IMG/VR virus record: IMGVR_UViG_3300000288_000150
Source of the DNA: a virus
Taxonomy: Duplodnaviria; Heunggongvirae; Uroviricota; Caudoviricetes
Direction: 5' to 3' (one strand)
Length of the DNA: 34,474 nucleotides
Shown here one piece after another: positions 982-24,743 of the stretch. The notes below the pieces were generated by a model. It made no database searches, was not told the origin of the DNA, and was given only the letters and a program-made list of their open reading frames with translations. Within the stretch, counting starts at the first letter, position 1. Every line of letters starts with the position of its first letter. Made by a program: the position numbers and the translations under genes.

Positions 982-1050
982 AAGAAAGCCCTCCGGCGCT
1001 GTATTCACCATCTTGGTAGCAAATGGTGAAAATGTAATCTTTATATAGAG

Positions 1051-1344
1051 TTAGCCAATCCTTTTCGCGGAGTGGTTGGACTCTGTTGACTCTGGCCCAA
1101 TGTGCGCGAGAGCCGGTGCGATTTGTCCTGCGTCCGGCGCGGTTTTATCTGTCATAAGCCATAGAGCATATTTTTGGAATGTGGGATGCATAGTGATTTT
1201 TAGCAAAGCTGTGCCACCGGGTTCAAAGTTTCCTCCTTCATATTTTTTAAGTGTGCTTAGCGGTAACTCTATGATTTCACAGAATTTTGATTGGCTTAGC
1301 CCTTCAGCCTCACGCAAGGCCTTAATCTTTTCGCTTAATTTCAT
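1051..1344 (-). CDS. C: Immunity repressor C (short HTH repressor, P2 C-like but divergent N-terminal half)
   Basis: 97-aa ORF divergent from cox; C-terminal ...QIAPALAH... resembles P2 C as I recall it; position between int and cox. Confidence 0.75.
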   Translation of the reverse strand: MKLSEKIKALREAEGLSQSKFCEIIELPLSTLKKYEGGNFEPGGTALLKITMHPTFQKYALWLMTDKTAPDAGQIAPALAHIGPESTESNHSAKRIG

Positions 1345-1465
1345 TTGACATGGTGCCTATATAGGGACTAAATTCCCTCAAAACTGGAACCTATATAGGT
1401 TCCATTGATTTGAGAATAAACCAGCGTCTAAACGGTTTTGAGTGGTTTAGAAAGGGCTGGATCCT
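1345..1465. promoter_or_regulatory. Lysis-lysogeny switch region with face-to-face Pc/Pe promoters and candidate operators
   Basis: Intergenic region between divergent C and cox. Two copies of CCTATATAGG (~1356-1365 and ~1390-1399); the second sits in a perfect 18-bp palindrome GGAACCTATATAGGTTCC. TATATA cores could double as -10 elements. Confidence 0.5.
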
Positions 1466-1753
1466 ATGAGGGTACCATATATGGACGCTGAAAATTATGT
1501 GATTCAGTATCCGCTTGATGCGGTTCATGTGGATAAATTTGCTGATTTATTAGGGAAGCCAAAGACAGCCGTCAGTGAAATGGTGAAGGCAAATAAATTA
1601 CCAATTATTGAATTGCGTGATCCTTGCAAACTGAAGGCTCGTGCCGGTGAAAAATGGGTTTTCATTCCTGAGTTTAATCGCGCTGTACGTGAGGCGTTTT
1701 ATAACCGACCGGTTGAACAGCGTGATGCATGGCTTTTGTGGATGGGGTTGTGA
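1466..1753 (+). CDS. cox: Cox-like excisionase / early transcriptional repressor
   Basis: ~91-95 aa ORF divergent from C; alternative start at 1481 has the better RBS (GAGGG). Position and size match P2 Cox. Confidence 0.7.
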   Translation: MRVPYMDAENYVIQYPLDAVHVDKFADLLGKPKTAVSEMVKANKLPIIELRDPCKLKARAGEKWVFIPEFNRAVREAFYNRPVEQRDAWLLWMGL

Positions 1754-1755
1754 TT

Positions 1756-1926
1756 ATGAATGAGCCGCGTTGTATTGCTCAGTTACTGCGTAACGAAAGC
1801 CCCAGGGCGATTGACTTCACCATCACCCACGGGAAGGGGCGCAAGGGAATCATTATCCGCACCAAAAAACAGAGTCCGTTAAAGAAGGCTCTGACCTTTC
1901 TGAAAAGCCGGAGGGTATGGAAATGA
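1756..1926 (+). CDS. Small early hypothetical protein (P2 orf78-like position)
   Basis: ATG at 1756 inside ORF 1729..1926; stop overlaps the B start region (ATGA). Confidence 0.4.
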   Translation: MNEPRCIAQLLRNESPRAIDFTITHGKGRKGIIIRTKKQSPLKKALTFLKSRRVWK

Positions 1927-2423
1927 CAGTGATGACGCTCAATCTCGTTGAAAAACAGCCAGCAGCTATGCGCCGGATAATTGGTAAGCATCTTGCCGTC
2001 CCTCGCTGGCAGGATACATGTGATTATTATAATCAGATGATGGAGCGCGAACGGTTAACGGTTTGCTTTCATGCGCAGTTAAAACAGCGTCACGCAACGA
2101 TGCGTTTTGAAGAAATGAACGACGTCGAACGTGAACGGCTGGTTTGTGCAATTGATGAATTGCGTGGGGCATTCTCAAAACGCCGTCAGGTTGGCGCAAG
2201 TGAGTATGCATATATTAGTTTTTTAACAGTCAGTCAGCGTCGTACTTTATTTATGCATGCCGGATTGACTGAAAAAGAATTCAACCAGCCATACTGGCGA
2301 ATTAATGAAGAATCATGTTACTGGCGTGATGCTTTATTCCGTGCATTACGTGAATTATTCAGCCTGTTTGAGTATGCACCGACAATTCTGACGTCGGTAA
2401 AACCAGAGCAATATCTGCATTAA
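1923..2423 (+). CDS. B: Replication protein B (helicase-loader-like, P2 gpB)
   Basis: 166 aa from the second ATG of ORF 1917..2423, with a GGAGGG RBS ~7 nt upstream; size and position match P2 B. Confidence 0.8.
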   Translation: MTVMTLNLVEKQPAAMRRIIGKHLAVPRWQDTCDYYNQMMERERLTVCFHAQLKQRHATMRFEEMNDVERERLVCAIDELRGAFSKRRQVGASEYAYISFLTVSQRRTLFMHAGLTEKEFNQPYWRINEESCYWRDALFRALRELFSLFEYAPTILTSVKPEQYLH

Positions 2424-2486
2424 ATAATTAACCAGAGTTTTTAACGCACTTAATCGTGCGGGGCTTCTTTTTGCCTGGAGAAAGTC

Positions 2487-2711
2487 ATGCATACAGTTTC
2501 TGAAAATCAGTGCGGTATATACGCATTACTGCTGCAACAGGCCAGAACCGAAGCACAGGCCGACGCTGCGACGCGCTTTTCTTCTCATCTTGACGCCATG
2601 ATTCGCCACATCACAAAGGCGGAGTTATCCCGCGTGGAGATAGTCGAGCTGCTCAGTCAGGTGTCGGAAAAATTTCACAATATCGGATTGTCTCGCGGGG
2701 AGGTACTTTGA
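2487..2711 (+). CDS. Small early protein (P2 orf80-like)
   Basis: 74-aa ORF with RBS GGAGAAAG; part of the B-to-A block of small overlapping ORFs. Confidence 0.5.
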
Positions 2712-3010
2712 TGTCCTGTTCTCATTCAGTTGTATTACTGAATAACGCCTTAAAAATCGCCGTTATGGAAAATGGTGATTTGTCTCTTATTCAACTTTGT
2801 CTTGATAAAGAAAAACGCGACATAACTGAATCTGTTATCGCGATTTATCAGAATGAATTAAACCTCCTGTCTGATGTGGTCAATTTACTTGTTAAACGCG
2901 CTGTGTTCCACAAGCAAATTTCCTCAGTGGATGAACTGACAAAATTAACGACAGAACTCGCCAGTTATTGCGCTGATGTATCCAGGAAACTTAACGATAA
3001 AAGGAGCTGA
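2708..3010 (+). CDS. Small early protein (P2 orf81-like)
   Basis: 100-aa ORF overlapping the upstream stop by 4 nt; RBS GGAGG. Confidence 0.5.
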
Positions 3011-3012
3011 TA

Positions 3013-3237
3013 ATGCCGGACAACGTAGATTTTATTCAGGAACAACAGGCTGAATTACTGGAGCGCCAGATTAACGCGGCAAGGGTAAAACATTGCTGTG
3101 CTTCTGCGCTGGTTTGCGAAGAGTGTGATACGCCAATACCTGCTGCCCGTCGTGCGGCTTATCCGTCAGCCACGCGTTGTGTTTCCTGCCAGTCAGTCTT
3201 TGAAGCAAAAAACAAGCATTACCGGAGAATGGCATGA
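3013..3237 (+). CDS. TraR/DksA-family C4 zinc-finger protein (P2 orf82-like)
   Basis: 74 aa with CxxC...CxxC (CEECDT...CVSCQ), typical of the TraR/DksA zinc-finger family; RBS AAGGAG. Confidence 0.6.
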   Translation: MPDNVDFIQEQQAELLERQINAARVKHCCASALVCEECDTPIPAARRAAYPSATRCVSCQSVFEAKNKHYRRMA

Positions 3238-3509
3238 GTATTCGTATTGAAATTGGCGAACGTTATGTCGTTACCAGTGACAGCTTTCAGTTTATTCTCC
3301 ACGAGAAAAAGAGAGCTGAAAGCGGTAAAAACGCCGGTCAGGAATGGCTGGCGGTGGTTGGTTATTACCCGAAATTAAGCCAGCTCGTTTCCGGCCTGAT
3401 GCATCACGATATTCTGACCGGAAGCGCAAAGTCTTTTGCTGATTTAAACGCGCAGGTTGAGCAACTCAGCAGGCGTTGTTCAGAGGCTTTTGGCTCATAT
3501 GGCCGTTAA
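3234..3509 (+). CDS. Small early protein (P2 orf83-like)
   Basis: 91-aa ORF, ATGA overlap with the upstream gene, overlaps the start of A. Confidence 0.5.
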   Translation: MSIRIEIGERYVVTSDSFQFILHEKKRAESGKNAGQEWLAVVGYYPKLSQLVSGLMHHDILTGSAKSFADLNAQVEQLSRRCSEAFGSYGR

Positions 3510-5784
3510 AGCCTCCGGGCGTTTTGTCCCTCCGTCAGCATTTGCCGCAGGCACCGGTAAGACGTTTACCGGTGCTTATGCATGGAACGCGCCACGCGAG
3601 GCCGTCGGGCGCGAAAGACCCCTTACACGTGACGAGATGCGTCAGGTGCAAGGTGTTTTATCCACGATTAACCGCCTGCCTTACTTTTTGCGCTCGCTGT
3701 TTACTTCACGCTATGACTACATCCGGCGCAATAAAAGCCCGGTGCACGGGTTTTATTTCCTCACATCCACTTTTCAGCGTCGTTTATGGCCGCGCATTGA
3801 GCGCGTTAATCAGCGCCATGAAATGAACACCGACGCGTCGTTGCTGTTTCTGGCAGAGCGTGACCACTATGCGCGCCTGCCTGGAATGAATGACAAGGAA
3901 CTGAAAAAGTTTGCCACCCGTATCTCATCGCAGCTTTTCATAATGTATGAGGAACTCTGCGATGCCTGGGTGGATGCGCATGGCGAGAAAGAATCACTGT
4001 TTACGGATGAGGCTCAGGATCACCTGTATGGTCATGTTGCTGGCGCTGCACGAGCTTTCAATATTTCCCCTCTCTACTGGAAAAAATACCGTAAAGGACA
4101 GATGACCACGAGGCAGGCTTATTCTGCCATTGCCCGTCTGTTTAACGATGAGTGGTGGACTCATCAGCTTAAAGGCCAGCGTATGCGCTGGCATGAGGCG
4201 TTACTGATTGCTGTCGGGGAGGTCAATAAAGACCGTTCTCCTTATGCCAGTAAACATGCCATTCGTGATGTGCGTGCGCGCCGCCAGGCAAATCTGGAGT
4301 TTCTTAAATCATGTGACCTTGAAAACAGGGAAACCGGCGAGCGCATCGACCTTATCAGTAAGGTGATGGGCAGTATTTCTAATCCTGAAATTCGCCGGAT
4401 GGAGCTGATGAACACCATTGCCGGTATTGAGCGTTACGCCGCCGCAGAGGGTGATGTGGGGATGTTTATCACGCTGACCACGCCGTCAAAGTATCACCCG
4501 ACACGTCAGGTCGGAAAAGGAGAAAGTAAAACCGTCCAGCTTAATCACGGCTGGAACGATGAGGCATTTAATCCGAAGGATGCGCAGCGTTATCTCTGCC
4601 GTATCTGGAGCCTGATGCGCACGGCATTCAAGGATAATGATTTACAGGTCTACGGTTTGCGTGTCGTCGAGCCACACCACGACGGAACGCCGCACTGGCA
4701 TATGATGCTTTTTTGTAATCCACGCCAGCGTAACCAGATTATTGAAATCATGCGTCGCTACGCGCTCAAAGAGGATGGAGACGAAAGAGGAGCCGCGCGA
4801 AACCGTTTTCAGGCAAAACATCTTAACCGGGGCGGTGCTGCGGGGTATATCGCGAAATACATCTCAAAAAACATCGACGGCTATGCACTGGATGGTCAGC
4901 TCGATAACGATACCGGCAGGCCGCTGAAAGATACTGCTGCGGCTGTTACCGCATGGGCGTCAACGTGGCGCATCCCGCAATTTAAAACGGTTGGCCTGCC
5001 GACAATGGGGGCTTACCGTGAACTACGCAAATTGCCTCGTGGCGTCAGCATTGCTGATGAGTTTGACGAACGCGTTGAGGCTGCACGTGCCGCCGCAGAC
5101 AGTGGTGATTTTGCGTTGTATATCAGCGCGCAGGGTGGGGCAAATGTTCCGCGTGATTGCCAGACTGTCAGAGTCGCCCGTAGCCCGTCGGATGACGTTA
5201 ACGAGTACGAGGAAGAAGTCGAGAGAGTGGTCGGCATTTACGCGCCGCATCTCGGCGCGCGTCATATTCATATCACCAGAACGACGGACTGGCGCATTGT
5301 GCCGAAAGTTCCGGTCGTTGAGCCTTTGACTTTAAAAAGCGGCATCGCCGCGCCTCGGAGTCCTGTCAATAACTGTGGAAAGCTCACCGGTGGTGATACT
5401 TCGTTACCGGCTCCCACACCTTCTGAGCACGCCGCAGCAGTGCTTAATCTGGTTGATGACGGTGTTATCGAATGGAATGACCCGGAGGTCGTGAGGGCGC
5501 TCAGGGGCGCATTAAAACACGGTCGGAGAACGCCAAACCGTCAGCAAAGAAACGGAAGCCCGTTAAAACCATATGAAATGGCACCATCGGCCAGACTGAC
5601 CCGGTCGGAACGAATGCAAATTACCCGTATCCGTGTTGACCTTGCTCAAAAGGGTATCAGGCCGCAGCGATGGGAACTTGAGGCGCTGGCGCGTGGAGCA
5701 ACCGTAAATTATGACGGGAAAAAATTCACGTATCCGGTTGCTGATGAGTGGCCGGGATTCTCAACAGTAATGGAGTGGAAATGA
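3499..5784 (+). CDS. A: Replication initiation protein A (rolling-circle nicking endonuclease, P2 gpA)
   Basis: 761 aa from the internal ATG (MAVKASGRF...) of ORF 3457..5784; contains the HxH-type motif (EPHHDGTPHWHMM) and tyrosine-rich region (GYIAKYISK) of rolling-circle initiators. Confidence 0.9.
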   Translation: MAVKASGRFVPPSAFAAGTGKTFTGAYAWNAPREAVGRERPLTRDEMRQVQGVLSTINRLPYFLRSLFTSRYDYIRRNKSPVHGFYFLTSTFQRRLWPRIERVNQRHEMNTDASLLFLAERDHYARLPGMNDKELKKFATRISSQLFIMYEELCDAWVDAHGEKESLFTDEAQDHLYGHVAGAARAFNISPLYWKKYRKGQMTTRQAYSAIARLFNDEWWTHQLKGQRMRWHEALLIAVGEVNKDRSPYASKHAIRDVRARRQANLEFLKSCDLENRETGERIDLISKVMGSISNPEIRRMELMNTIAGIERYAAAEGDVGMFITLTTPSKYHPTRQVGKGESKTVQLNHGWNDEAFNPKDAQRYLCRIWSLMRTAFKDNDLQVYGLRVVEPHHDGTPHWHMMLFCNPRQRNQIIEIMRRYALKEDGDERGAARNRFQAKHLNRGGAAGYIAKYISKNIDGYALDGQLDNDTGRPLKDTAAAVTAWASTWRIPQFKTVGLPTMGAYRELRKLPRGVSIADEFDERVEAARAAADSGDFALYISAQGGANVPRDCQTVRVARSPSDDVNEYEEEVERVVGIYAPHLGARHIHITRTTDWRIVPKVPVVEPLTLKSGIAAPRSPVNNCGKLTGGDTSLPAPTPSEHAAAVLNLVDDGVIEWNDPEVVRALRGALKHGRRTPNRQQRNGSPLKPYEMAPSARLTRSERMQITRIRVDLAQKGIRPQRWELEALARGATVNYDGKKFTYPVADEWPGFSTVMEWK

Positions 5785-6233
5785 TGGCAAAAATTCACGA
5801 GGTAAAGCTGCACGCAAAATATTTCGACCTTGTGCTGGAAGGAAAGAAACGTGCAGAGTTTCGGAAAAATGACCGTAATTATGAGCGCGGGGACACGCTG
5901 ATTTTGCATGAATGGGTACAGGGTGTGTTTACGGGGCGAAAGGTTGAAGCCCGGATAACAGATGTTACTGACCTGTCAGACTGGCTGGAAGATTATGTCT
6001 TGCTAAGTATTGAGCTGCTTAATACAGGCGCATATGAGATTGTGAACTGGAAAGAACTTAGTGAGCGTGGTCTGGTATTCAGAATTAATCATGAAATTAT
6101 GCATCAGCTCGGTCTTGCTGTTATGTATGAGTCAGTGACAGGCCTGTCTGGCGGAGCAGTGGTTGCTGCGGATGGGATGTGGAGCTATTCAGATGAACAG
6201 GTGGAGTGTGCAAAGCAAAAAGGGTGGTTTTGA
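5781..6233 (+). CDS. ASCH-domain (PUA-like fold) protein
   Basis: 150 aa from the ATG at 5781 (GGAG RBS; overlaps the A stop). N-terminal EVKLHAKYFDLVLEGKKRAEFRKNDRNYERGDTLIL resembles the ASCH beta-barrel motif. Domain call from memory, not searched. Confidence 0.5.
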   Translation: MMAKIHEVKLHAKYFDLVLEGKKRAEFRKNDRNYERGDTLILHEWVQGVFTGRKVEARITDVTDLSDWLEDYVLLSIELLNTGAYEIVNWKELSERGLVFRINHEIMHQLGLAVMYESVTGLSGGAVVAADGMWSYSDEQVECAKQKGWF

Positions 6234-6235
6234 AA

Positions 6236-6469
6236 ATGCACAGAATACCAGGCGAGATACCTCAGCATAAAACTAAAAATATCAAGCTGATGGCCATTGT
6301 TCACCGTCTACAGCAGATTATGGTCAACGAAAATCTGACGCCTGATGAGCTGGTCGGGTGTGCCGAAATGGTCCGGGATAATTACAGACGGTTTAACGAT
6401 ATCAGTAGACAGAAAATTGAGGTATTTCGACCAGCAAACATGCCTAAGAAACTACCGCATAGGATGTAG
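6236..6469 (+). CDS. Hypothetical small protein
   Basis: 77 aa from the ATG at 6236 inside ORF 6206..6469; no recognisable motif. Confidence 0.35.
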   Translation: MHRIPGEIPQHKTKNIKLMAIVHRLQQIMVNENLTPDELVGCAEMVRDNYRRFNDISRQKIEVFRPANMPKKLPHRM

Positions 6470-6475
6470 TATACT

Positions 6476-6508
6476 CGCCATTTCTGAAACTTGTTTTCAG
6501 AGATGGCG
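6476..6508 (+). terminator. Strong hairpin (14-bp stem, one mismatch) after the early/replication operon; possible terminator or regulatory structure
   Basis: CGCCATTTCTGAAA...TTTCAGAGATGGCG inverted repeat a few nt after the stop of the 6236..6469 ORF; no clear T-tract follows. Confidence 0.35.
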
Positions 6509-6684
6509 GGGTTGAACAATGAGCGTAGCGACGTGTTAGCTTTGATTCCTGCTGTGTTTACAATTAAACCTATTGAAAATTAATGAGAACTCAATTTCAT
6601 CTTTCTCTCGTTAAAGATGGCCACAACTACTAAAACATGAGAATATCAAAACTTGGCGAAATCTAGCTTTTCCCAAGGGGTGGT

Positions 6685-6720
6685 TTCGCTATAATACGCG
6701 GTCGGTTTTTAGGAGGGGCG
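6685..6720 (+). promoter_or_regulatory. Putative promoter -10 (TATAAT ~6690-6695) and strong Shine-Dalgarno (AGGAGG ~6708-6713) for the methyltransferase
   Basis: Consensus TATAAT hexamer and AGGAGG 7 nt before the ATG at 6721, in a ~250-bp AT-rich intergenic region; -35 not convincing. Confidence 0.35.
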
Positions 6721-7659
6721 ATGCCAACTGTAGTTTCACTTTTTTCTGGATGTGGTGGTTCTGATGCGGGAGTTTTGAGAGCAGGGTTCAATGTGCTGAT
6801 GGCAAACGATATTTTGCCTTATGCAAGGGACGTTTACTTAGAAAACCATCCTGAAACTGATTACATATTGGGCGATATTTCAGGACTCCAATCGTTCCCT
6901 TCTGCCGAATTGCTTATCGGATGCTATCCTTGCCAGGGATTTAGCCAGGGTGGAGCAAGGAAGGCAGATAGAAAGATTAATACTCTATATTTAGAGTTTG
7001 CTCGTGCTTTGAGAAAGATTAAGCCAAAAGCATTCATTGTAGAGAATGTTTCTGGAATGGTAAGGCGTAACTTTGAACATTTGTTAAAGGATCAATTCAA
7101 AGTTTTCGAAGAAGCAGGTTATACAGTAAGCTCGCAAATTCTGAATGCGTCCCACTATGGCGTATCACAAGATAGGAAGAGAATCTTTATCGTAGGAATA
7201 CGAAAAGACTATGGTATTACATACAAATTTCCAAAACCAACACATGGTGATGGCTTGAAACCATATTCAACAATTCGTGATGCTATTGGTCATATGCCTG
7301 TTTGGCCTATTGGTGAGTTTTATGATGCCGATTTTCATTGGTATTATCTATCGCGCAACCGTCGGCAAGATTGGGATCAGATATCTAAAACAATTGTTGC
7401 AAATCCTAGACATATGCCTCTACATCCAATAAGTCCAACATTAGAAAAATTGGGTCCAGATAAGTGGCAATTTACTTCGGATGCACCAGCTCGTAGGTTT
7501 AGTTATCGAGAGGCCGCTATTTTACAGGGTTTTGGAGACCTAATTTTTCCAGAAACTGAACGGGCTTCTATTAATATGAAGTATACAGTAGTTGGCAATG
7601 CTGTTCCGCCTCCTTTATTTGAGGCGGTTGCTAAATCTCTTCCAGATATTTGGGATTAG
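6721..7659 (+). CDS. DNA (cytosine-5)-methyltransferase, small M.HaeIII-like architecture
   Basis: Motif I FSGCGG, motif IV GCYPCQGFS, motif VI FIVENVSGM, motif VIII QDRKRIF, motif X TVVGNAVPPPL, with a variable target-recognition region between VIII and IX. 312 aa. Confidence 0.9.
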   Translation: MPTVVSLFSGCGGSDAGVLRAGFNVLMANDILPYARDVYLENHPETDYILGDISGLQSFPSAELLIGCYPCQGFSQGGARKADRKINTLYLEFARALRKIKPKAFIVENVSGMVRRNFEHLLKDQFKVFEEAGYTVSSQILNASHYGVSQDRKRIFIVGIRKDYGITYKFPKPTHGDGLKPYSTIRDAIGHMPVWPIGEFYDADFHWYYLSRNRRQDWDQISKTIVANPRHMPLHPISPTLEKLGPDKWQFTSDAPARRFSYREAAILQGFGDLIFPETERASINMKYTVVGNAVPPPLFEAVAKSLPDIWD

Positions 7660-8652
7660 TTATTCGACCTTAAGATCATTGATAATTTGTTCGAAATCAA
7701 GAAACCATTGTTCTGAAACTATTTTAGGGCAATGGTTTGTCTTTTTTAAAAGCTGTAATATCCTTGCTCTGTCAATGATCAATACTCCAGCGCAAGGGCT
7801 ATTGTCTACCCATTGACCATCTGAGTTTCGATAGAATACGGGGGTAAACATTAGAGTTGGTATGTCAAAATGCACTTGAAAATATGTTCGTAGTTTCAAT
7901 GAGTGGGCTTCAAGTGTTTTTTTGGGCCAATCTCTTTCTTGGGCTCCACATTGACCTAAAAAGGCAAAGTTACTACTTAATTTATCTTCAAATTCTATAG
8001 TTGCAACTATATCAAAACCACCATCACCTCTCGGATCAGCTCTTTCGCACTCTTGCTCATTAATATAAGGAACAGCTAAGTCTTTTCCTAGCCTTTTCAA
8101 GGCTTTTCTTAAATCAGTACCATAATATTTTCGCCTGTCATCTGAGTTTGCGTCAAATACTCGTACAGTTGAGTGTGCTGGGAGTAGTGCTGTTGCACAA
8201 AATTTACTTACGACAGCAAAATTTTTTGCCCAAAACTGTATTATTCCTTGCCTAGCCTTTGTGAAAGAACGTAACCTCGAGCATGCGAGTAAGAAAATAT
8301 ATATTCTTTGTATCTCAGTGAGGTTTTCTTTCAATGAAATAAAGTCACCATTAATAATAAATGGATAAATATCCTTGAGAAAATTTTGTCTAAAATCGAG
8401 TTGCGTCCAGACATCTTCAACTTGTCTTTCTAAACGGTCATTGCGTTCAGCATCGCAGCCTTCATTTTCATCTTCTTGATATTCTTGATCAATATCATCC
8501 ACACTTGTGTTACTTTGAGTTCTTATTGTTATGAGGTCATTTTTATGTAGATCATAACGACCAGAATAATTTATAACCGTAGCAAGTTCTGCAAGGTCTG
8601 CAAAAAGATGAGGAACACTAGGATGAATGTCTCCGATTTTAAAAATCTTCAT
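7660..8652 (-). CDS. Uncharacterised cargo protein; candidate restriction endonuclease or nuclease effector (possible PD-(D/E)xK-like motif)
   Basis: ORF 7660..8700 minus; preferred start is the ATG at 8652 (MKIFKIGD...), overlapping the upstream gene's stop by ~14 nt. Stop codon directly abuts the MTase stop (7657-7659 / 7660-7662). Segment ...GDGGFDIVATIEFEDK... could be a D...E-x-K catalytic motif. AT-rich. Confidence 0.55.
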   Translation of the reverse strand: MKIFKIGDIHPSVPHLFADLAELATVINYSGRYDLHKNDLITIRTQSNTSVDDIDQEYQEDENEGCDAERNDRLERQVEDVWTQLDFRQNFLKDIYPFIINGDFISLKENLTEIQRIYIFLLACSRLRSFTKARQGIIQFWAKNFAVVSKFCATALLPAHSTVRVFDANSDDRRKYYGTDLRKALKRLGKDLAVPYINEQECERADPRGDGGFDIVATIEFEDKLSSNFAFLGQCGAQERDWPKKTLEAHSLKLRTYFQVHFDIPTLMFTPVFYRNSDGQWVDNSPCAGVLIIDRARILQLLKKTNHCPKIVSEQWFLDFEQIINDLKVE

Positions 8653-9757
8653 CGTCAGAAACCTTTTTGGCTTTAATTGTATTACCAATAAGTTTGACAT
8701 TTTGACTTAGGCGTCTTGCAACTTCCAATGCTTCAGGATTGTAATCAATGGTTGCAACAATTCCAGCCGCTTCAATTAATGCAGATTCAGCTTTATAAAG
8801 TAACGTCATGAAATCTTGTTTTAAGTCTTCAGTTAACTGATACGCAACCTTAAGGTCAGCCCCGTTTCTAAAGGACGTTAAAGCCTTGGGGTTATCAATA
8901 ACAGAAGATAATAGGCGTAAATTTCGGGACTCTCCAACCTTTGTTTTCCCGGAATCATCCTTTTTATAAAGCCATACTGTAAGTTCTCTGGTATTTTCTC
9001 TATTTATATGATGTGGGTGAATTATTACATCATTGGATGTAATATCACCATATTCGTCTTTTTCTGAAACGCCAACAAACAATCCAATTTTCTCGTCAGC
9101 TAAGGCTGTAGATAAAATTGAAAACTTGATCGATTCTTCATCTAATCCATCAATATCATAAAAGTTATTGCTCTCCATTACTTTATAAACGGCTAAAGCA
9201 TCTAGATTTCTCTTGATATGATCTTTTCTGCTACCGATTGCACGAGCAACCTGATGATATCGATCATTAGTCGGTGAGTTTGGGGAGGTGAGACCAAAAA
9301 GTTGCTCGATATAACGAGCCTTCGATAGAGGTTCCCATTGTTTGACACCAGTGATATGTCTGAAACCCAAATAAGGTAAAATTTCAGCTCTGGTATCTCT
9401 AACGATCACTGGTAATTTTTCTAGTGTACCTAGTTTATCTTTAGCGCTTTCGGCGATTTCTATCATCCGGGAGCTGGGTCTGTCGCACTCATATGGGTTA
9501 TGAATAAGTTTAACTGCCGTTAAGCGACGGTTGCCTTCCACAACGGTGTACTTATCTCCCTCTTTAACCGCAATAAGAGGCTCGCCAGGAAAAAATCCAT
9601 TTTCTGCGATTGCATTCATCAAGTCTTCAATAGAGGTTGTTAGAGCTATATGATTTAGCATTGCTTCTGGGGTACGTTCAACACCTTCAGGAAGACGTGG
9701 ATTTTTTGTATCAAGCTCAAGTTTATTGAGGTCGATGTAATCAAGGCTTTCTGTCAT
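8639..9757 (-). CDS. ParB/Srx-fold (ParB N-terminal-domain-like) protein, first gene of the two-gene cargo operon
   Basis: ORF 8639..9790 minus; likely ATG start at 9757 (MTESLDYIDL...). N-terminal region ...IDLNKLELDTKNPR... + ...GFFPGEPLIAVKEGDKYTVVEGNRRLTAVKL... matches the ParB-box pattern. AT-rich. Confidence 0.65.
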   Translation of the reverse strand: MTESLDYIDLNKLELDTKNPRLPEGVERTPEAMLNHIALTTSIEDLMNAIAENGFFPGEPLIAVKEGDKYTVVEGNRRLTAVKLIHNPYECDRPSSRMIEIAESAKDKLGTLEKLPVIVRDTRAEILPYLGFRHITGVKQWEPLSKARYIEQLFGLTSPNSPTNDRYHQVARAIGSRKDHIKRNLDALAVYKVMESNNFYDIDGLDEESIKFSILSTALADEKIGLFVGVSEKDEYGDITSNDVIIHPHHINRENTRELTVWLYKKDDSGKTKVGESRNLRLLSSVIDNPKALTSFRNGADLKVAYQLTEDLKQDFMTLLYKAESALIEAAGIVATIDYNPEALEVARRLSQNVKLIGNTIKAKKVSDDEDF

Positions 9758-9944
9758 AACTCTAATCTCATTAGATATGGTGATATGCAAAGATTAACAC
9801 TGGAGTTAAACGTAGGCTAGAACTGCAATTATGTGCATTAAAATGCATGCGTAAGTAACTCGCTAAAATGAAGCCATAAACTCACAGTGGTGCTATGAAT
9901 AATATGTTATGCAACTGCATTAAAACCGACCCATGAAGCGGGCG

Positions 9945-9963
9945 GGCGAGGCGGGGAAAGCAC
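9945..9963. other. cos site: candidate 19-nt cohesive-end sequence GGCGAGGCGGGGAAAGCAC
   Basis: Sequence matches the P2 cohesive-end sequence as I recall it, and lies where cos is expected (between the old/tin-position cargo and Q), in a GC-rich non-coding stretch. Confidence 0.55.
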
Positions 9964-10102
9964 TGCGCGCTGGCGGTGGTGCGGATTTTATTTTTTCAGC
10001 GTCTGAGCGTGTCGTGACGGCGTTTAGATTGTGCGCCGGGGCATTGGTGTGTCTGCGGGGTGTTTTGTGCGGTGGTGAGCGTGTGAGGGCGTGATGACGG
10101 GA

Positions 10103-10127
10103 TATAAAAAAGCCGCCCGCAGGCGGC
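10103..10127 (-). terminator. Rho-independent terminator downstream of portal gene Q (minus strand)
   Basis: GCCGCC-CGCA-GGCGGC hairpin followed on the minus strand by a T6 tract, directly after the Q stop codon. Confidence 0.55.
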
Positions 10128-10132
10128 GATGT

Positions 10133-11167
10133 TCAGCCGTTGTCAGTGTCCAGTGAGTAGTTTTTAAAGCGGATGACCTCCTGACCGATCCAGCCGTTTA
10201 TCTCGCGGATCCTATCCTGTAACGGGATAAGCTCATTGCGGACAAAGACCTTTGCCACTTTCTCAATATCGCCCAGTGACCCGACGTTCTCCGGCTTGCC
10301 GCCCATCAACTGAAAGGGGATGCGGTGCGCGTCCAGCAGGTCAGCGGCGCTGGCTTTTTTGATATTAAAAAAATCGTCCTTCGTTGCCACTTCACTGAGC
10401 GGGATAATTTTGATGCCGTCGGCTTTCCCCTGTGGGGCATAGAGAAACAGATTTTTAAAGTTGTTGCGGCCTTTCGACTTCACCATGTTTTCGCGGAGCA
10501 TTTCGATATCGTTGCGATCCTGCACGGCATCAGTGACGTACATGATATATCCGGCATGAGCGCCGTTTTCGTAATACTTGCGGCGGAACAGCGTGGCCGA
10601 CTCATTCAGCCAGGCAGAGTTAAGGGCGCTGAGATATTCCGGCAGGCCGTACAGCTCCTGATTAATATCCGGCTCCAGCAGATGAAACACGGAGCCGGGC
10701 GCGAAGGCTGTCGGCTCGTTGAAGGACGGCACCCACCAGTAAACATCCTCTTCCACGCCACGACGGGTATATTTCGCCGGTGAGGTTTCCAGTCTGATGA
10801 CCTTACCGGTGGTGCTGTAGCGCTTTTCCAGAAACGCATTACCGAACACCAGAAAATCCAGCACAAAGCGGCTGAAATCCTGCTGGGAAAGCCACGGGTG
10901 CGGGATAAACGTTGAAGCCAGAATATTACGTTTGACGTAAATCGGTGAGCTGTGATGCACGGCAGCACGCAGACTTTTTGCCAGACCGGTAAAGCTGACC
11001 GGCGGCTCATACCATCTGCCGTTACTGATGCATTCGACGTAATCCAGAATGTCACGGCGGTCGAGTACCGGCACCGGCTCGCCAAAGGTGAATGCCTCCA
11101 TTTTCGGGGCGCTGGCGGTCATTGTTTTTGCCGCAGGTTGCGGTGTTTTCCCTTTTTTCTTGCTCAT
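10133..11167 (-). CDS. Q: Portal protein (P2 gpQ)
   Basis: 344 aa from the ATG at 11167 (MSKKKGKTP...), matching P2 Q length. The ORF-track extension to 11293 runs through an N-run and is an artefact. Confidence 0.9.
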   Translation of the reverse strand: MSKKKGKTPQPAAKTMTASAPKMEAFTFGEPVPVLDRRDILDYVECISNGRWYEPPVSFTGLAKSLRAAVHHSSPIYVKRNILASTFIPHPWLSQQDFSRFVLDFLVFGNAFLEKRYSTTGKVIRLETSPAKYTRRGVEEDVYWWVPSFNEPTAFAPGSVFHLLEPDINQELYGLPEYLSALNSAWLNESATLFRRKYYENGAHAGYIMYVTDAVQDRNDIEMLRENMVKSKGRNNFKNLFLYAPQGKADGIKIIPLSEVATKDDFFNIKKASAADLLDAHRIPFQLMGGKPENVGSLGDIEKVAKVFVRNELIPLQDRIREINGWIGQEVIRFKNYSLDTDNG

Positions 11168-11183
11168 CAGTAAAACTCCAGAA

Positions 11184-11262
11184 NNNNNNNNNNNNNNNNN
11201 NNNNNNNNNNNNNNNNNNNNNNNNNNNNNNNNNNNNNNNNNNNNNNNNNNNNNNNNNNNNNN
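11184..11262. other. Run of N (assembly gap or masked segment) at the P/Q junction
   Basis: 79 consecutive N. Confidence 1.
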
Positions 11263-13004
11263 GGGGTGCTGATACCGGCGGTGAGTGGCTCATTTAACAG
11301 GGCGTGCATGGTCGCCCAGGCGAGGTCGGCGTGGCTGGCTTCCTCGCTGCGGCTGGCCTCATAGGTGGCGCTGCGTCCGCTGCTGGTCATGGTCTTGCGG
11401 ATAGCCATAAACGAGCTGGTGATGTCGGTGGCGCTGACGTCATATTCCAGACAGCCACGGCGGATAACGTCTTTTGCCTTGAGCACCATTGCGGTTTTCA
11501 TTTCCGGTGTGTAGCGGATATCGCGCGCGGCAGGATAGAACGAGCGCACGAGCTGGAACACGCCGACACCGAGGCCGGTGGCATCAATACCGATGTATTC
11601 GACGTTATATTTTTCGGTGAGTTTGCGGATGGATTCAGCCTGGGTGGCAAAGTCCATGCCTTTCCACTGGTGACGCTCAAGTATTCTGAATTTGCCACCG
11701 GCCACCACCGGCGGTGCCAGTACCACGCATCCGGCACTGTCGCCACGGTGTGACGGGTCGTAACCAATCCATACCGGGCGGGAGCCGAACGGATTGGCGG
11801 CAAAGGGTGCATAGTCTTCCCATTCTTCCAGCGTGTCGACCATGCAGCGTTGCAGCTCCTCGAACGGGAACACCGATGCCTTGTCGTCAACAAATTCACA
11901 CATGAACAGGTTTTTAAAATCGTCGGCGCTGTTTTCGCGTTTGAGCTGCTCAATGTCGAACAGCGTGCAGCCGCCTTTCAGGGCGTCCTCAATGGTGACA
12001 ATCTGCCGCCACTGGCCGTCCGCACAGAGAAGACCTCCGGCAAGGGCGTTATGACTGACGTCGATTTCCACGCGTTCGGCGGCGCTGGCGCGTCCCCGGT
12101 TGAACAGTTCACCCGACCAGAACGGGTAGGCGTCGTGCGCCAGCGTGGACGGGGTGGAGAAATAGGTCGAGCGCAGGTGGCTCTGTGAGGCCATACCTGA
12201 TGCCACCTTACGCAGTACCTGAAAATTCGGGATCCAGAAAATCTCGTCGACGTACAGGTCGCCGTTATGGCTCTGTGCGGTGTTGGAGTTGGTGCCGAGA
12301 AAAATCAGTTTTGCGCCGTTATTGCCCAGGACAATCGGGTCACCGGTCAGGTCAACGTCAACCAGACGGGCAAAGGCGATGATGTATTCGCGGAACACAT
12401 ACGCCTGCGTTTTACTGGCCGACAGAAAAATCTGGTTATGACCGGTTTTCAGGGCACGCAGCAGCGCCTCGCGGGAAAAATAAAACGTCGCGCCAATCTG
12501 GCGGGATTTCAGGATATCTCGGATGCGGTGCTCAAGCCCGGCGCGATACCAGTGCAACTGATATTCGAAAGACTGCTCAAAGAAAATCTGCTCCAGCTTT
12601 TCGATGGCCTCGTCACTGAAAAAATTCTTTTTCGGTTTGCGACGCCCGCCTTTGTTGCGGTTAGCGACGTTCGGATTAAGGTCTGCCTCGTTGCCGGTCT
12701 GACTGTAGCGGTTGACCCGTGCCAGTCGTTCAATCTGGCGTCCCAGCAGGTCAATTTCCTTGAAGTCACCGCCGGTTTTCTGCGGTTTGATGATGAGCTG
12801 GGTCAGCCGCGCTTCCAGACTCATTTCGACACGGCTGATGGGGGCAACGCTGTCCCAGCCGTCGCGCTGTTTCCAGCTCTGCACCGTCGGGCGTTTCATC
12901 TGCAACATGGCGGCAATCTGCGGCACGGAAAACCCCTGCCAGTACAGCAGCGCCGCCTGACGACGCGGGTCGTGTAAAAGAGTGGTGTCTGTGGTGATGG
13001 TCAT
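11263..13004 (-). CDS. P: Terminase large subunit (ATPase, P2 gpP); 3' end lies inside the N-run
   Basis: Start at ATG 13004 (MTITTDTTLL..., RBS GAGGT). C-terminus falls in the N-run 11184-11262, so the true stop is not visible. Confidence 0.85.
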
Positions 13005-13177
13005 GAATACCTCGCCGTGATGAATACACGGCAAGGCTACTGAGTCGCGCCCCGCGATTCGCTAAGGTGCTGTTGTGTCAGTGATAAGCCATCCGGGACT
13101 GATGGCGGAGGATGCGCATCGTCGGGAAACTGATGCCGACATGTGACTCCTCTAATCACTATTCAGGACTCCTGACA

Positions 13178-14032
13178 ATGGCAAAAAAAGTCTCAAAATT
13201 CTTTCGTATCGGCGTTGAGGGTGACACCTGTGACGGGCGTGTCATCAGTGCGCAGGATATTCAGGAAATGGCCGAAACCTTTGACCCGCGTGTCTATGGT
13301 TGCCGCATTAACCTGGAACATCTGCGCGGCATCCTGCCTGACGGTATTTTTAAGCGTTATGGCGATGTGACCGAACTGAAGGCCGAAAAGATTGACGATG
13401 ATTCGGCGCTGAAAGGCAAATGGGCGCTGTTTGCGAAAATCACCCCGACCGATGACCTTATCGCGATGAACAAGGCCGCGCAGAAGGTCTACACCTCAAT
13501 GGAAATTCAGCCGAACTTTGCCAACACCGGCAAATGTTATCTGGTGGGGCTGGCCGTCACCGATGACCCGGCAAGCCTCGGCACGGAATACCTGGAATTC
13601 TGCCGCACGGCAAAACACAACCCCCTGAACCGCTTCAAATTAAGCCCTGAAAACCTGATTTCAGTGGCAACGCCCGTTGAGCTGGAATTTGAAGACCTGC
13701 CTGAAACCGTGTTCACCGCCCTGACCGAAAAGGTGAAATCCATTTTTGGCCGCAAACAGGCCAGCGATGACGCCCGTCTGAATGACGTGCATGAAGCGGT
13801 GACCGCTGTTGCTGAACATGTGCAGGAAAAACTGAGCGCCACTGAGCAGCGCCTCGCTGAGATGGAAACCGCCTTTTCCGCACTTAAGCAGGAGGTGACT
13901 GACAGGGCGGATGAAACCAGCCAGGCATTCACCCGCCTGAAAAACAGCCTCGACCACACCGAAAGTCTGACCCAGCAGCGCCGCAGCAAGGCCACCGGCG
14001 GTGGCGGTGACGCCCTGATGACGAACTGCTGA
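13178..14032 (+). CDS. O: Capsid scaffolding protein (P2 gpO)
   Basis: 284 aa from the internal ATG (MAKKVSKFF...); divergent from P; coiled-coil C-terminal half. Confidence 0.9.
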   Translation: MAKKVSKFFRIGVEGDTCDGRVISAQDIQEMAETFDPRVYGCRINLEHLRGILPDGIFKRYGDVTELKAEKIDDDSALKGKWALFAKITPTDDLIAMNKAAQKVYTSMEIQPNFANTGKCYLVGLAVTDDPASLGTEYLEFCRTAKHNPLNRFKLSPENLISVATPVELEFEDLPETVFTALTEKVKSIFGRKQASDDARLNDVHEAVTAVAEHVQEKLSATEQRLAEMETAFSALKQEVTDRADETSQAFTRLKNSLDHTESLTQQRRSKATGGGGDALMTNC

Positions 14033-14090
14033 CCGGCGTCAGTCAGTCCGGAAAAACCTTCACGATTAACCCTTAATTTCAGGAAAAACT

Positions 14091-15164
14091 ATGCGCCAGG
14101 AAACCCGCTTTAAATTTAATGCCTACCTGTCCCGTGTTGCCGAACTGAACGGCATCGACGCCGGTGATGTGTCGAAAAAATTCACCGTTGAACCGTCGGT
14201 CACCCAGACCCTGATGAACACCATGCAGGAGTCCTCTGATTTCCTGACCCGCATCAACATTGTGCCGGTCAGCGAAATGAAAGGGGAAAAAATTGGCATC
14301 GGTGTCACCGGCTCCATCGCCAGCACCACCGACACCGCCGGTGGCACCGAGCGTCAGCCGAAGGACTTCTCGAAGCTGGCGTCAAACAAGTACGAATGCG
14401 ACCAGATTAACTTCGATTTTTATATCCGCTACAAAACGCTTGACCTGTGGGCGCGTTATCAGGATTTCCAGCTCCGTGTCCGTAACGCCATTATCAAACG
14501 CCAGTCCCTTGATTTCATCATGGCCGGTTTTAACGGCGTGAAGCGTGCCGAAACCTCTGACCGCAGCAGCAATCCGATGCTGCAGGATGTGGCGGTCGGC
14601 TGGCTGCAGAAATACCGCAATGAAGCCCCGGCGCGCGTGATGAGCAAGGTCACTGACGAGGAAGGGCACACCACCTCTGAGGTCATCCGCGTGGGTAAGG
14701 GCGGTGATTATGCCAGCCTCGATGCACTGGTGATGGATGCGACCAACAACCTGATTGAGCCGTGGTATCAGGAAGACCCTGACCTTGTGGTGATTGTGGG
14801 GCGTCAGCTGCTGGCGGACAAATATTTCCCCATCGTCAACAAGGAGCAGGACAACAGCGAAATGCTGGCCGCTGACGTCATCATCAGCCAGAAACGCATC
14901 GGTAACCTGCCGGCGGTACGCGTCCCGTACTTCCCGGCGGATGCGATGCTCATCACGAAGCTGGAAAACCTGTCCATCTACTACATGGATGACAGCCATC
15001 GCCGCGTGATTGAGGAAAACCCGAAACTCGACCGCGTGGAGAACTACGAGTCAATGAACATTGATTACGTGGTGGAAGACTACGCCGCCGGTTGTCTGGT
15101 GGAAAAAATTAAGGTCGGTGATTTCTCCACACCGGCTAAGGCGACCGAAGAGCCGGGAGCGTAA
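14091..15164 (+). CDS. N: Major capsid protein (P2 gpN)
   Basis: 357 aa, same length as P2 N; follows O. Confidence 0.9.
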   Translation: MRQETRFKFNAYLSRVAELNGIDAGDVSKKFTVEPSVTQTLMNTMQESSDFLTRINIVPVSEMKGEKIGIGVTGSIASTTDTAGGTERQPKDFSKLASNKYECDQINFDFYIRYKTLDLWARYQDFQLRVRNAIIKRQSLDFIMAGFNGVKRAETSDRSSNPMLQDVAVGWLQKYRNEAPARVMSKVTDEEGHTTSEVIRVGKGGDYASLDALVMDATNNLIEPWYQEDPDLVVIVGRQLLADKYFPIVNKEQDNSEMLAADVIISQKRIGNLPAVRVPYFPADAMLITKLENLSIYYMDDSHRRVIEENPKLDRVENYESMNIDYVVEDYAAGCLVEKIKVGDFSTPAKATEEPGA

Positions 15165-15167
15165 CCG

Positions 15168-15911
15168 ATGACGAGTCCCGCACAGCGCCACATGATGCGG
15201 GTCTCGGCAGCGATGACCGCGCAGCGGGAAGCCGCCCCGCTGCGACATGCAACTGTCTATGAGCAGATGCTGGTTAAGCTCGCCGCAGACCAGCGCACAC
15301 TGAAAGCGATTTATTCAAAAGAGCTTAAGGCCGCGAAAAAACGCGAACTGCTGCCGTTCTGGTTGCCGTGGGTGAACGGCGTGCTGGAGCAGGGCAAAGG
15401 TGCACAGGATGACATTCTGATGACGGTCATGCTGTGGCGTCTGGATACCGGCGATATTGCCGGTGCGCTGGAGATTGCCCGTTATGCCCTGAAGTACGGT
15501 CTGACCATGCCGGGTAAACACCGCCGCACCCCGCCGTACATGTTCACCGAGGAGGTGGCGCTTGCGGCCATGCGCGCTCACGCTGCCGGTGAGTCTGTGA
15601 ATCCCCGCCTGCTGACGGACACCCTTGAACTGACCGCCACGGCTGACATGCCTGATGAAGTGCGCGCAAAGCTGCACAAAATCACCGGTCTGTTTCTGCG
15701 TGACGCTGGTGATGCCGCAGGGGCGCTGGCGCACCTGCAACGTGCGACACAGCTCGACTGTCAGGCAGGCGTCAAAAAAGAGATTGAACGACTGGAGCGG
15801 GAGCTGAAACCGAAGCCGGAGCCGCAGCCAAAAGCGGTCACCCGCGCCCCGCGTAAGACCCGGAGCGTGACACCGGCAAAACGTGGACGCCCGAAAAAGA
15901 AAGCCAGTTAA
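15168..15911 (+). CDS. M: Terminase small (endonuclease) subunit (P2 gpM)
   Basis: 247 aa, same as P2 M; basic Pro/Lys-rich C-terminal tail. Confidence 0.85.
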   Translation: MTSPAQRHMMRVSAAMTAQREAAPLRHATVYEQMLVKLAADQRTLKAIYSKELKAAKKRELLPFWLPWVNGVLEQGKGAQDDILMTVMLWRLDTGDIAGALEIARYALKYGLTMPGKHRRTPPYMFTEEVALAAMRAHAAGESVNPRLLTDTLELTATADMPDEVRAKLHKITGLFLRDAGDAAGALAHLQRATQLDCQAGVKKEIERLERELKPKPEPQPKAVTRAPRKTRSVTPAKRGRPKKKAS

Positions 15912-16010
15912 CAACCGAATGCGCCCCGCGCCAGGGCGGCACGCCGGTCAGTGAGGGTGAATCACCTGACACTGCACCGGCGTCCACCGCCCGACTTTTC
16001 AGAGGTAGTC

Positions 16011-16520
16011 ATGATGACGCTGATTATTCCGCGAAAGGAGGCTCCCGTGTCCGGTGAGGGGACGGTGGTCATCCCGCAACCGGCAGGCGACGAGCCGGTG
16101 ATTAAAAACACGTTCTTTTTTCCCGATATCGACCCGAAGCGCGTCCGGGAACGTATGCGCCTTGAGCAGACCGTCGCCCCCGCCCGTCTGCGTGAGGCCA
16201 TCAAGTCAGGCATGGCGGAGACGAATGCGGAGCTGTACGAATACCGCGAACAGAAAATTGCCGCCGGTTTTACGTGTCTGGCGGACGTTCCGGCGGACGA
16301 CATCGACGGTGAAAGCATCAAAGTTTTTTACTACGAGCGCGCCGTGTGTGCGATGGCGACCGCATCGCTTTATGAGCGTTATCGCGGCGTGGATGCCAGT
16401 GCGAAAGGCGACAAGAAGGCTGACAGCATTGACAGCACCATTGATGAGCTGTGGCGGGATATGCGCTGGGCGGTGGCGCGCATCCAGGACAAGCCGCGCT
16501 GCATCGTGAGTCAAATCTGA
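16011..16520 (+). CDS. L: Head completion/stabilisation protein (P2 gpL)
   Basis: 169 aa from the internal ATG (MMTLIIPRKE..., RBS AGAGG). Confidence 0.85.
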   Translation: MMTLIIPRKEAPVSGEGTVVIPQPAGDEPVIKNTFFFPDIDPKRVRERMRLEQTVAPARLREAIKSGMAETNAELYEYREQKIAAGFTCLADVPADDIDGESIKVFYYERAVCAMATASLYERYRGVDASAKGDKKADSIDSTIDELWRDMRWAVARIQDKPRCIVSQI

Positions 16521-16722: not shown

Positions 16723-16725
16723 CGC

Positions 16726-17504: not shown

Positions 17505-17518
17505 ACGGAGTAAACACC

Positions 17519-19443: not shown

Positions 19444-19509
19444 TTGTGCCATTCCCGACACCTCATCGTCACATTGCCGCCGGTATGACCCGGCGGCATC
19501 CTTCCCGTT

Positions 19510-24740: not shown

Positions 24741-24743
24741 ATT

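Follow-up and report, generated by a model that had tools for sequence, protein, structure and literature searches.

A ParB-like protein paired with a restriction endonuclease-fold protein: a candidate restriction–modification-like module in the gpA–gpQ hotspot of a P2-like prophage

Introduction

PD-lambda-5, a defence system annotated as 'ParB/HEPN, methyltransferase' and functionally selected from Escherichia coli ECOR7, protects against most of the phages tested and has been described as a compacted restriction–modification (RM) and abortive infection system (PMC9519451). Here we describe a related arrangement in a stretch of DNA of 34,474 nucleotides (IMG/VR virus record IMGVR_UViG_3300000288_000150; hereafter the window, meaning the whole stretch that was analysed), which is a P2-like (Peduovirus) prophage of E. 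coli. Between gpA/orf91 and the portal gene gpQ lies a gene for a ParB-like protein of 372 amino acids, which is followed by an overlapping gene for a protein with a restriction endonuclease (REase)-like fold (the partner); this two-gene operon is convergent with a gene for a C5-cytosine DNA methyltransferase (Table 1). Rousset 2022 (PMC9122126) defined the gpA–gpQ interval as a hotspot of P2; in P2 itself the site is occupied by old and tin (PMC9122126; Vassallo 2022, PMC9519451), and the earlier placement of the operon in a defence hotspot agrees with this position. We put the probability at slightly more than one half (about 0.55) that the ParB-like protein belongs, as a subunit, to an RM-like anti-phage module of three genes in this hotspot.

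Proteins of the ParB superfamily are also found in other systems that combine nucleotide binding with DNA cleavage. DndI and SspE are ParB-superfamily nucleoside triphosphatases (NTPases) fused to nucleases, and DNA modification tunes their NTPase activity and hence cleavage (PMC11662687). Comparative genomics has led to the argument that the true restriction component at dnd loci is unknown, and REases fused to a HARE-HTH and encoded just downstream of dnd genes have been proposed as the real restriction components (PMC10853773). Finally, a 2025 survey of the ParB-CTPase fold found that orphan ParB proteins of unknown function are common in prophages (PMC12704722).

The assignment of a ParB domain to the window protein is not new, since RefSeq already labels it 'ParB N-terminal domain-containing protein'. 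What appears to be new is an obligate cassette of a ParB-like and a REase-fold protein, its coupling to 5-methylcytosine (m5C) or phosphorothioate modification, and a defence candidate of P2 hotspots that had not been recognised as such; literature searches for the ParB-like/REase-fold pair found no description. The original prediction, made from the sequence of the window, had assigned the gene to the ParB/Srx fold and had proposed a role in defence. The obligate downstream REase-fold partner, the convergent m5C methyltransferase and the family-wide linkage to modification genes go beyond it.

A canonical ParB fold

The window protein has the ParB/Srx fold and belongs to its canonical ParB branch. 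The structural model (AlphaFold2, built on 38 homologues, predicted local distance difference test score 88.6) was compared with the PDB by Foldseek. The best 20 matches are all ParB, Noc or KorB (E 1.5e-5 to 3e-4), in alignments of about 260 columns spanning both the N-domain and a helix-turn-helix (HTH) domain; sulfiredoxin, SbnI and the serine kinase SerK come after them. Alignment by hhalign of the family profile with Bacillus subtilis ParB (Spo0J; the query is 100% identical to PDB 6sdk) gives an E value of 9.5e-5 over 136 columns, in which the NPR segment, Box I, the GxRR box and the HTH all correspond and the EGNRR box is aligned with GERRFRA of the B. subtilis protein. The ParB N-terminal domain of the original prediction is thus borne out by structure and by profile alignment, and the motifs quoted there, ...LELDTKNPRLPEG... 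and ...GFFPGEPLIAVKEGDKYTVVEGNRRLTAVKL..., are present.

Conservation follows the same motifs: in 82 family members D16, N19-P20-R21, E59 and E74-G75-N76-R77-R78 are at least 95% conserved (the GNRR codons occupy 9535-9524), and the HTH is near-invariant among homologues. Sequence profiles give scores under the family cut-offs, namely E 0.014 and 15.9 bits for Pfam ParB_N (PF02195; cut-off 26.3) and 2e-5 and 24.4 bits for TIGR00180 (cut-off 58.45); a precomputed PF02195 match is present in some homologues. Searches of PDB sequences with both family profiles returned a single weak match, to Helicobacter pylori ParB.

In ParB proteins, the residues of cytidine triphosphate (CTP) hydrolysis lie in Box III (E111/N112 of B. 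subtilis ParB, the E-N of ENLQR). At this segment hhalign places a 15-residue insertion and gives no clean alignment, and where ParB has its hydrolysis residues the family has an invariant block, R133-H134-x-T136-G137-x-K139-x-W141. The rest of the protein, about 250 residues, had been described earlier as devoid of any assignable motif. This holds for the last ~170 residues, a helical domain without an informative match, and fails for the segment before them, which Foldseek and hhalign identify as a ParB-type HTH.

An affinity to DndB or DUF262 proteins, which the original prediction had listed for checking, is rejected. The box reads EGNRR and not DGQQR, the structure matches canonical ParB, and no DUF262-type structure (DndB, SspE, DndI, BrxU) stands among the Foldseek matches listed.

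The gene is read from the minus strand; translation of the same interval on the plus strand is full of stops. A longer form of 383 amino acids, starting from TTG at 9790, is given in the program-made list of open reading frames (ORFs); the RefSeq protein and most homologues have 372 amino acids.

Comparison with PD-lambda-5 and other ParB-superfamily systems

The association with defence that had been proposed for the locus is strengthened by PADLOC, in which residues 5-158 match 24 PD-lambda-5_A models (best E 7.4e-23) and residues 41-316 match the candidate PDC-M38A. Like PD-lambda-5, the window module is prophage-borne and sets a homologous ParB-like N-domain beside a DNA methyltransferase. 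Unlike PD-lambda-5_A, however, the window protein lacks the HEPN half (matches to the A models end at about profile position 90-175 of 430-590) and has its own 170-residue helical tail, whereas the predicted effector is a separate PD-(D/E)XK-fold protein. The methylases differ as well, that of the window being a C5-cytosine enzyme (PF00145) and PD-lambda-5_B being Dam-like. Because it has no HEPN half and an m5C rather than a Dam-like methylase, the window module is regarded as distinct from PD-lambda-5. A HEPN domain in the C-terminal half of the ParB-like protein was considered and rejected: the PD-lambda-5_A models stop at about residue 160, and no conserved Rx4-6H was seen on reading.

Two phages illustrate how the PD-lambda-5 architecture can vary. 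A true PD-lambda-5 is present in Marinobacter phage AS1, with a 486-residue A protein matched over its full length and a B methylase (4e-103). In Vibrio phage ValB1MD-2 (3132-5571 of its record) the A component is split into two overlapping ORFs, one of 252 residues that is ParB-like and one of 265 residues that matches the rest of the A profile, followed by a Dam-like methylase that scores 2e-118 with PD-lambda-5_B; the 265-residue ORF corresponds to the HEPN half in the ParB/HEPN annotation of Vassallo (PMC9519451). The fused and split forms indicate that the effector downstream of a ParB module may be joined to it in a single polypeptide or encoded separately, in each case beside a methylase.

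DndI, SspE, GmrSD and BrxU share with the window pair the coupling of a ParB-superfamily nucleotide-binding domain to a nuclease or nuclease fold and a link to DNA modification, and DndI and SspE are partnered with phosphorothioation genes (PMC11662687), as is one clade of the window family. They differ in their DGQQR motif, DUF262 fold and HNH/DUF1524 nuclease, all in a single polypeptide, whereas the window side has EGNRR, a canonical ParB-like fold with HTH and a PD-(D/E)XK fold, distributed over two polypeptides. The CTP clamps ParB, Noc and KorB are structurally the closest, matching both the N-domain and the HTH domain; in contrast to them, the window protein has neither ParA, parS nor a ParA-interaction motif, has another C-terminal domain and no recognisably conserved Box III, and is found in a family with an obligate nuclease-fold partner.

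The partner and the methyltransferase

The start of the partner gene overlaps the stop of the ParB-like gene by 14 nt. The model of its product combines an N-terminal winged helix, for which winged-helix proteins are the matches, with a C-terminal PD-(D/E)XK restriction-endonuclease-like fold. Invariant among 78 members (330-residue numbering) are D19, E22, R88, P97-F98, Y118 and P271 and, within the fold region, G212, D214, D223, Q234-C235, K245, R295 and R297, the last two as R295-x-R297. D214 stands just before a predicted strand and Q234-C235 end the next strand, positions in which PD and (D/E)xK elements are usually found. The canonical lysine position is occupied by G236, and K245, the lysine that might stand in for it, falls in a loop of low confidence. 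From the model, the partner is likely, though not proven, to be a nuclease.

Pfam found no match in 11 partner sequences, whether to HARE-HTH, to Mrr_cat or to other nuclease families, and PADLOC has no model for the partner. The partner may belong to the HARE-HTH-linked REases proposed at dnd loci; Pfam, however, finds no HARE-HTH in the partner sequences. The text of that study speaks neither of P2 hotspots nor of a ParB-like gene lying between dndE and the REase (PMC10853773).

The methyltransferase matches Pfam DNA_methylase (PF00145) at 3.7e-62 and also TIGR00675. It aligns with M.HaeIII (PDB 1dct) at E 1.3e-49 over residues 4-307, including the target-recognition region; M.HhaI aligns only to residue 174, that is, with the catalytic half. 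Because the M.HaeIII alignment runs from end to end and includes the target-recognition region, the enzyme probably recognises GGCC or a related site. Its stop codon abuts that of the partner at 7659/7660. Beyond the methyltransferase stop, at a distance of 43 nt, the 3' end of the partner gene contains a hairpin with a 17-bp stem and then a T-run; this is a pattern match to a terminator and may act as one for the methyltransferase transcript.

In PADLOC, the best 25 matches of the methyltransferase are to DruM, MTase_II, DrmMII and oMTase m5C models, with DruM2 first (2.8e-111). Druantia type II was rejected: the DruE helicase, DruF and DruG are lacking and the accessory island holds three genes only. 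The largest ORF in window parts 1-20000 and 23000-27600 has 913 codons' worth of residues (913 aa) and stands at the tail-fibre position.

Family-wide pairing and linkage to modification genes

Homologues of the ParB-like protein and of the partner are numerous and are found on the same contigs. One genome per species was scanned, which gave 80 loci, mostly from Pseudomonadota and Bacteroidota, with single loci from Acidobacteria/Terriglobales and from metagenome-assembled genomes (MAGs) of Turneriella, Acidaminococcales and Riflebacteria. The partner follows the ParB-like gene in 76 of the 80, and in most the two ORFs overlap or abut; the other four end at contig edges. A search with the N-domain against 1.84 billion representatives, clustered at 50%, returned 2848 clusters, 1108 of them at E <= 1e-10. 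Nearly all proteins among its best 150 matches have about 350-410 residues, and no fusion of a ParB-like protein to a REase-fold partner is present among them; the only pair met in split or fused form is PD-lambda-5_A itself.

A modification module adjoins the pair in 57 of the 68 loci with adequate flanks. In 31 loci this is an m5C methyltransferase gene, which may be convergent, co-directional downstream or upstream. In 26 loci, mostly of Bacteroidota MAGs and isolates, it is the phosphorothioation set dndC-dndD-dndE, in one overlapping operon that ends in the pair and often has a DndE-ATPase fusion and sometimes a cysteine desulfurase. The loci L042, L053 and L071 and 23 others show this as a five-gene operon, dndC-dndD-dndE(ATPase fusion)-ParB-like-partner. 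No genes of DndFGH size were found in the ~5-kb flanks of the dnd-linked loci, and the pair is the only restriction (nuclease) candidate in these operons.

In a neighbour-joining tree, the dnd-linked proteins fall into one clade, nested among m5C-linked clades; it also holds L032, L038 and L060, in which such linkage is unknown or absent. A further kind of neighbourhood is seen in a Methylococcaceae MAG (2514-8137 of its contig), where a pair 57% identical to that of the window, and without an m5C methylase, lies directly downstream of genes for an AAA ATPase and a type I HsdS specificity subunit; this pair may be coupled to a type I methylase.

The three-gene layout of the window recurs in a Burkholderia prophage (by the integrase), in an Atlantibacter P2-like prophage, in Pseudomonas phage vB_PaeM-D14A, in coliphage Wphi (mth-gp96-gp98) and on a Methylomonas chromosome, between an insertion sequence element and pnp. 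The methyltransferases of the window and of Wphi (4165-5103 of its record) are 98% identical, whereas identity is 32% between the ParB-like proteins and 24-25% between the partners. In the family at large, two clades of the pair that are deeply divergent have HaeIII-like methylases beside them (66-98% identity), and other pair clades use m5C methylases of only 27-45% identity. These mismatches imply that the restriction-side cassette has been exchanged independently of the methylase, and the comparison of the window with Wphi indicates recombinational exchange at the convergent junction.

A possible mode of action

In the preferred reading, the m5C methyltransferase would mark host and prophage DNA as self, and restriction would be exerted by the ParB-like protein and the partner together, as a two-protein complex. 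The partner would contribute its winged helix and PD-(D/E)XK nuclease fold, and the ParB-like protein a switch that binds a nucleoside triphosphate (NTP) through the EGNRR box, together with the HTH as DNA-binding domain. By analogy with the ParB and KorB clamps, and with DndI and SspE, the ParB-like subunit might bind DNA and NTP and scan along the DNA. On modified self DNA the nucleotide cycle of this subunit would change, and the nuclease would then be released or held off; DNA without the mark would license the partner to cut. The original prediction had proposed a sensor or nuclease module; for the ParB-like protein we infer a role of this kind, in which it would read the mark, and an anti-phage activity of the window module as a whole. 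The homology to PD-lambda-5_A, a validated defence protein, is counted in favour of such a subunit.

Because the cassette couples to different marks and specificities, a mark-sensing or scanning mechanism of the DndI/DndFGH type is our favoured hypothesis over a type II enzyme matched to the site of its methylase. A bolder and more tentative proposal, which we hold to be possible but clearly less probable than the module itself, is that the pair forms a new class of nucleotide-gated restriction enzyme, in which a ParB switch, perhaps a CTP-dependent sliding clamp, licenses a PD-(D/E)XK nuclease on unmarked DNA. The cassette would then be mark-agnostic, having been taken up by the Dnd machinery as well as by C5-cytosine methyltransferases of several specificities, and in many Bacteroidota it would be the missing restriction component of Dnd. 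If true, a canonical ParB-type nucleotide switch would for the first time be seen to control a restriction enzyme.

Several points weigh against the module as proposed. The Box III hydrolysis residues have no clear counterpart in the family, which has R133-H134...W141 instead, and a ParB-like nucleotide cycle is for this reason unproven. An HTH gene upstream of and overlapping the restriction gene, and convergent with the methylase gene, is also the classic layout of a controller (C) protein. Eleven loci with good flanks have the pair and no modification gene nearby, although one of these stands right after a type I HsdS gene. Lastly, methylases that are near-identical beside such divergent pairs would fit a classical type II system poorly, because there the enzyme must read the same site as its methylase; the same decoupling may push towards a mark-sensing mechanism.

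The family has a wider bearing on two bodies of work. The locus gives one large clade of orphan ParB-like proteins (about 1100 clusters, 50% identity, E <= 1e-10) a testable role with a nuclease partner, and the cassette, by ending dndCDE operons without DndFGH, joins the literature on orphan ParB proteins to that on phosphorothioation. RefSeq annotates such loci as an orphan methylase with hypothetical proteins, and P2 hotspots with a module of the window type are probably counted as having no known defence.

Alternative explanations

The main rival, which we regard as rather unlikely yet the most serious, makes the ParB-like protein a transcriptional controller, a large analogue of RM C-proteins, of KorB or of DndB, and leaves restriction to the partner alone. 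The protein would bind near its own promoter, perhaps as an NTP-dependent clamp, and would time or limit expression of the nuclease, letting methylation come first in a newly entered host. As in a typical C-protein operon, its gene precedes and overlaps the R-like gene and is convergent with M, a layout well established for the control of RM systems. Type II RM systems with a C-protein also resemble the locus in the REase fold of the second gene product and the M.HaeIII-like methylase; the resemblance to KorB fits a controller as well, and DndB, which also belongs to the ParB superfamily, is a reported regulator of dnd genes (PMC10853773). The likeness ends, however, with the upstream gene itself, which encodes a 372-residue ParB-fold protein and not a C-protein of ~80-100 residues. 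This size, together with a conserved NTP-binding box and a conserved 170-residue extra domain, is beyond what a controller needs. In PD-lambda-5_A the homologous N-domain is fused to a HEPN effector, and in one phage the two are separate ORFs, which points to direct coupling with an effector, and in the dnd-linked loci the ParB-like gene takes the distal end of the five-gene operon, whereas dndB is promoter-proximal. The restriction side of type II systems is further set apart by the divergence of the pair beside a conserved methylase and by the pairing of the cassette with phosphorothioation genes.

The region upstream of the operon bears on the same question. Since the portal gene has a terminator at 10127-10112, the operon needs its own promoter, which should lie between the start codon and the cos site; a scan of this interval for consensus promoters gave no site. 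A small palindrome that would suit a controller, TGCATT-AA-AATGCA, stands 90 nt before the start (about 9834-9847), and TGCATTAAAA has a second copy at 9916. The upstream regions of 15 loci (the window and 14 homologous ones), however, share no motif beyond A/T runs, the best being present in 12 of 15 loci against 8-11 in shuffles, and no palindrome or C-box-like operator is common to them. With an HTH that is near-invariant, this lack of any conserved operator argues against a simple operator-binding regulator.

A second alternative, which we consider improbable, reverses the roles: the ParB-like protein would be the catalytic effector, a DNase or NTP-degrading enzyme as reported for some ParB/Srx members such as Osa, and the partner a catalytically degenerate REase-fold protein whose winged helix recognises DNA or its modification. 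It draws on the absence of the canonical (D/E)xK lysine from the partner (Q234-C235-G236), on the unusual invariant R133-H134 where ParB has its hydrolysis residues, and on ParB/Srx proteins that act as nucleases or NTPases in plasmid and phage conflicts (cited in PMC10853773). Yet D214, D223, Q234, K245, R295 and R297 of the partner are invariant on its core strands in more than 75 sequences, an acidic and basic cluster as expected for an active site, and no metal site of the nuclease type is evident in the ParB-like domain. Variants with Q-x-K or a relocated lysine are well known among active PD-(D/E)XK enzymes.

Slightly less probable still is a module that serves the phage, in which the methylase shields P2-like DNA from host restriction and the pair is an anti-defence accessory or an addiction device. 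It is well established that RM-like modules can act as selfish addiction elements. Fusions of the ParB fold to methyltransferases are enriched in prophages, and an anti-defence role has been suggested for them (PMC12704722). Against such a role, the three genes are also found outside prophages, as on the Methylomonas chromosome, the pair is the sole nuclease candidate in dnd-linked operons, and the related PD-lambda-5 has demonstrated defence activity; besides, addiction and defence may go together.

The architecture of ParB N-domain and HTH might suggest that the prophage uses the protein as a conventional ParB, for partition or centromere binding. This reading, which the original prediction had called unlikely, is effectively refuted: none of the six frames of the window has the ParA Walker A motif KGGxGK[ST], the repeats in or near the locus are short, two-copy ones without parS-like arrays, P2-like prophages integrate and this one has an integrase gene, the N-terminus MTESLDYIDL lacks the LG(R/K)GL ParA-interaction motif (as defined in PMC12704722), and both the obligate pairing with a nuclease-fold protein and the linkage to modification genes speak for another function.

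Genomic setting

The module fills a low-GC accessory island of 3.3 kb (GC 0.38, as compared with 0.51-0.54 in the P2 core genes on either side), whose borders were set where other P2-like phages lose or regain their match to the window. Besides the genes of Table 1, a tail-fibre assembly gene was among the window genes checked as P2-type. The ORF at 11052-13034 is presumably the terminase by its position, and the capsid and other tail genes, read from the ORF layout, presumably follow as in P2.

Table 1. Features of the window (positions in the window; residues are those of the ParB-like protein)
Feature	Position	Strand	Basis	Remarks
Integrase	1-1011		Pfam
gpA	3457-5784		Pfam
orf91, DUF3850/ASCH plus DUF7415 protein	5748-6233		Pfam	just left of island
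Low-GC accessory island	6560-9900	.	composition, match borders	three genes
C5-cytosine DNA methyltransferase	6721-7659	plus		312 aa; convergent with two-gene operon
Partner	7660-8652	minus		330 aa; ATG at 8652
Hairpin, terminator-like	7702-7738	plus	consensus scan, inverted repeat	17-bp stem, T-run
ParB-like protein	8639-9757	minus		372 aa; ATG at 9757, stop 8641-8639
ParB N-domain	residues ~1-135			NPR motif aa 19-21; EGNRR box aa 74-78
ParB-type HTH	residues ~143-196		Foldseek, hhalign
Helical domain	residues ~197-372			~170 residues; no informative match
Upstream non-coding region of operon	9758-9944	minus		start codon to cos site
Portal gpQ	10133-11293		Pfam

Eight complete E. coli genomes carry the island at 100% identity and O145:H28 strains at 99.8%, and at least 80% of it is present in 36 of 5426 genomes. 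Four deposited phages, vB_EcoM-12474II to V (host E. coli DSM 12242), carry it. A decayed copy of the module is seen in Yersinia phage L-413C (3920-4912 of its record), where a C-terminally truncated ParB-like gene of 330 codons (330 aa) stands directly after orf91 and the partner and methylase are deleted.

At 9945-9963, 188 nt upstream of the ParB-like start, the window has an exact GGCGAGGCGGGGAAAGCAC, which we take to be the P2 cohesive-end (cos) sequence. The record of L-413C ends at window position 9963 and those of 12474II, IV and V start within ~25 nt of it, which places the operon at the extreme end of the virion DNA.

Other features of the window

Five masked runs of N, 383 bases in all, lie at 11184-11262, 18100-18170, 20128-20192, 26203-26279 and 32065-32155; one of them interrupts the translation of the portal gene with X residues. 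GATC is strongly depleted across the window (35 observed against 140 expected, a ratio of 0.25), and the next most depleted 4-bp palindrome is GGCC (ratio 0.65). The latter was considered as a footprint of the system and set aside as uninformative, the prophage being shielded by its own methylase and the ratio having no background comparison.

A second hotspot of P2 has been described through its fun gene (Vassallo 2022, PMC9519451). In the window, a second low-GC island (25272-26668, GC 0.33) separates the tail-fibre assembly gene from the ORF at 26669-27859. From its position, this ORF is presumably the tail sheath gene, and the island would be the Z/fun locus of the P2 map. The island holds one ORF of 259 residues on the minus strand (25423-26202), with no match in Pfam or PADLOC, which is a candidate defence gene.

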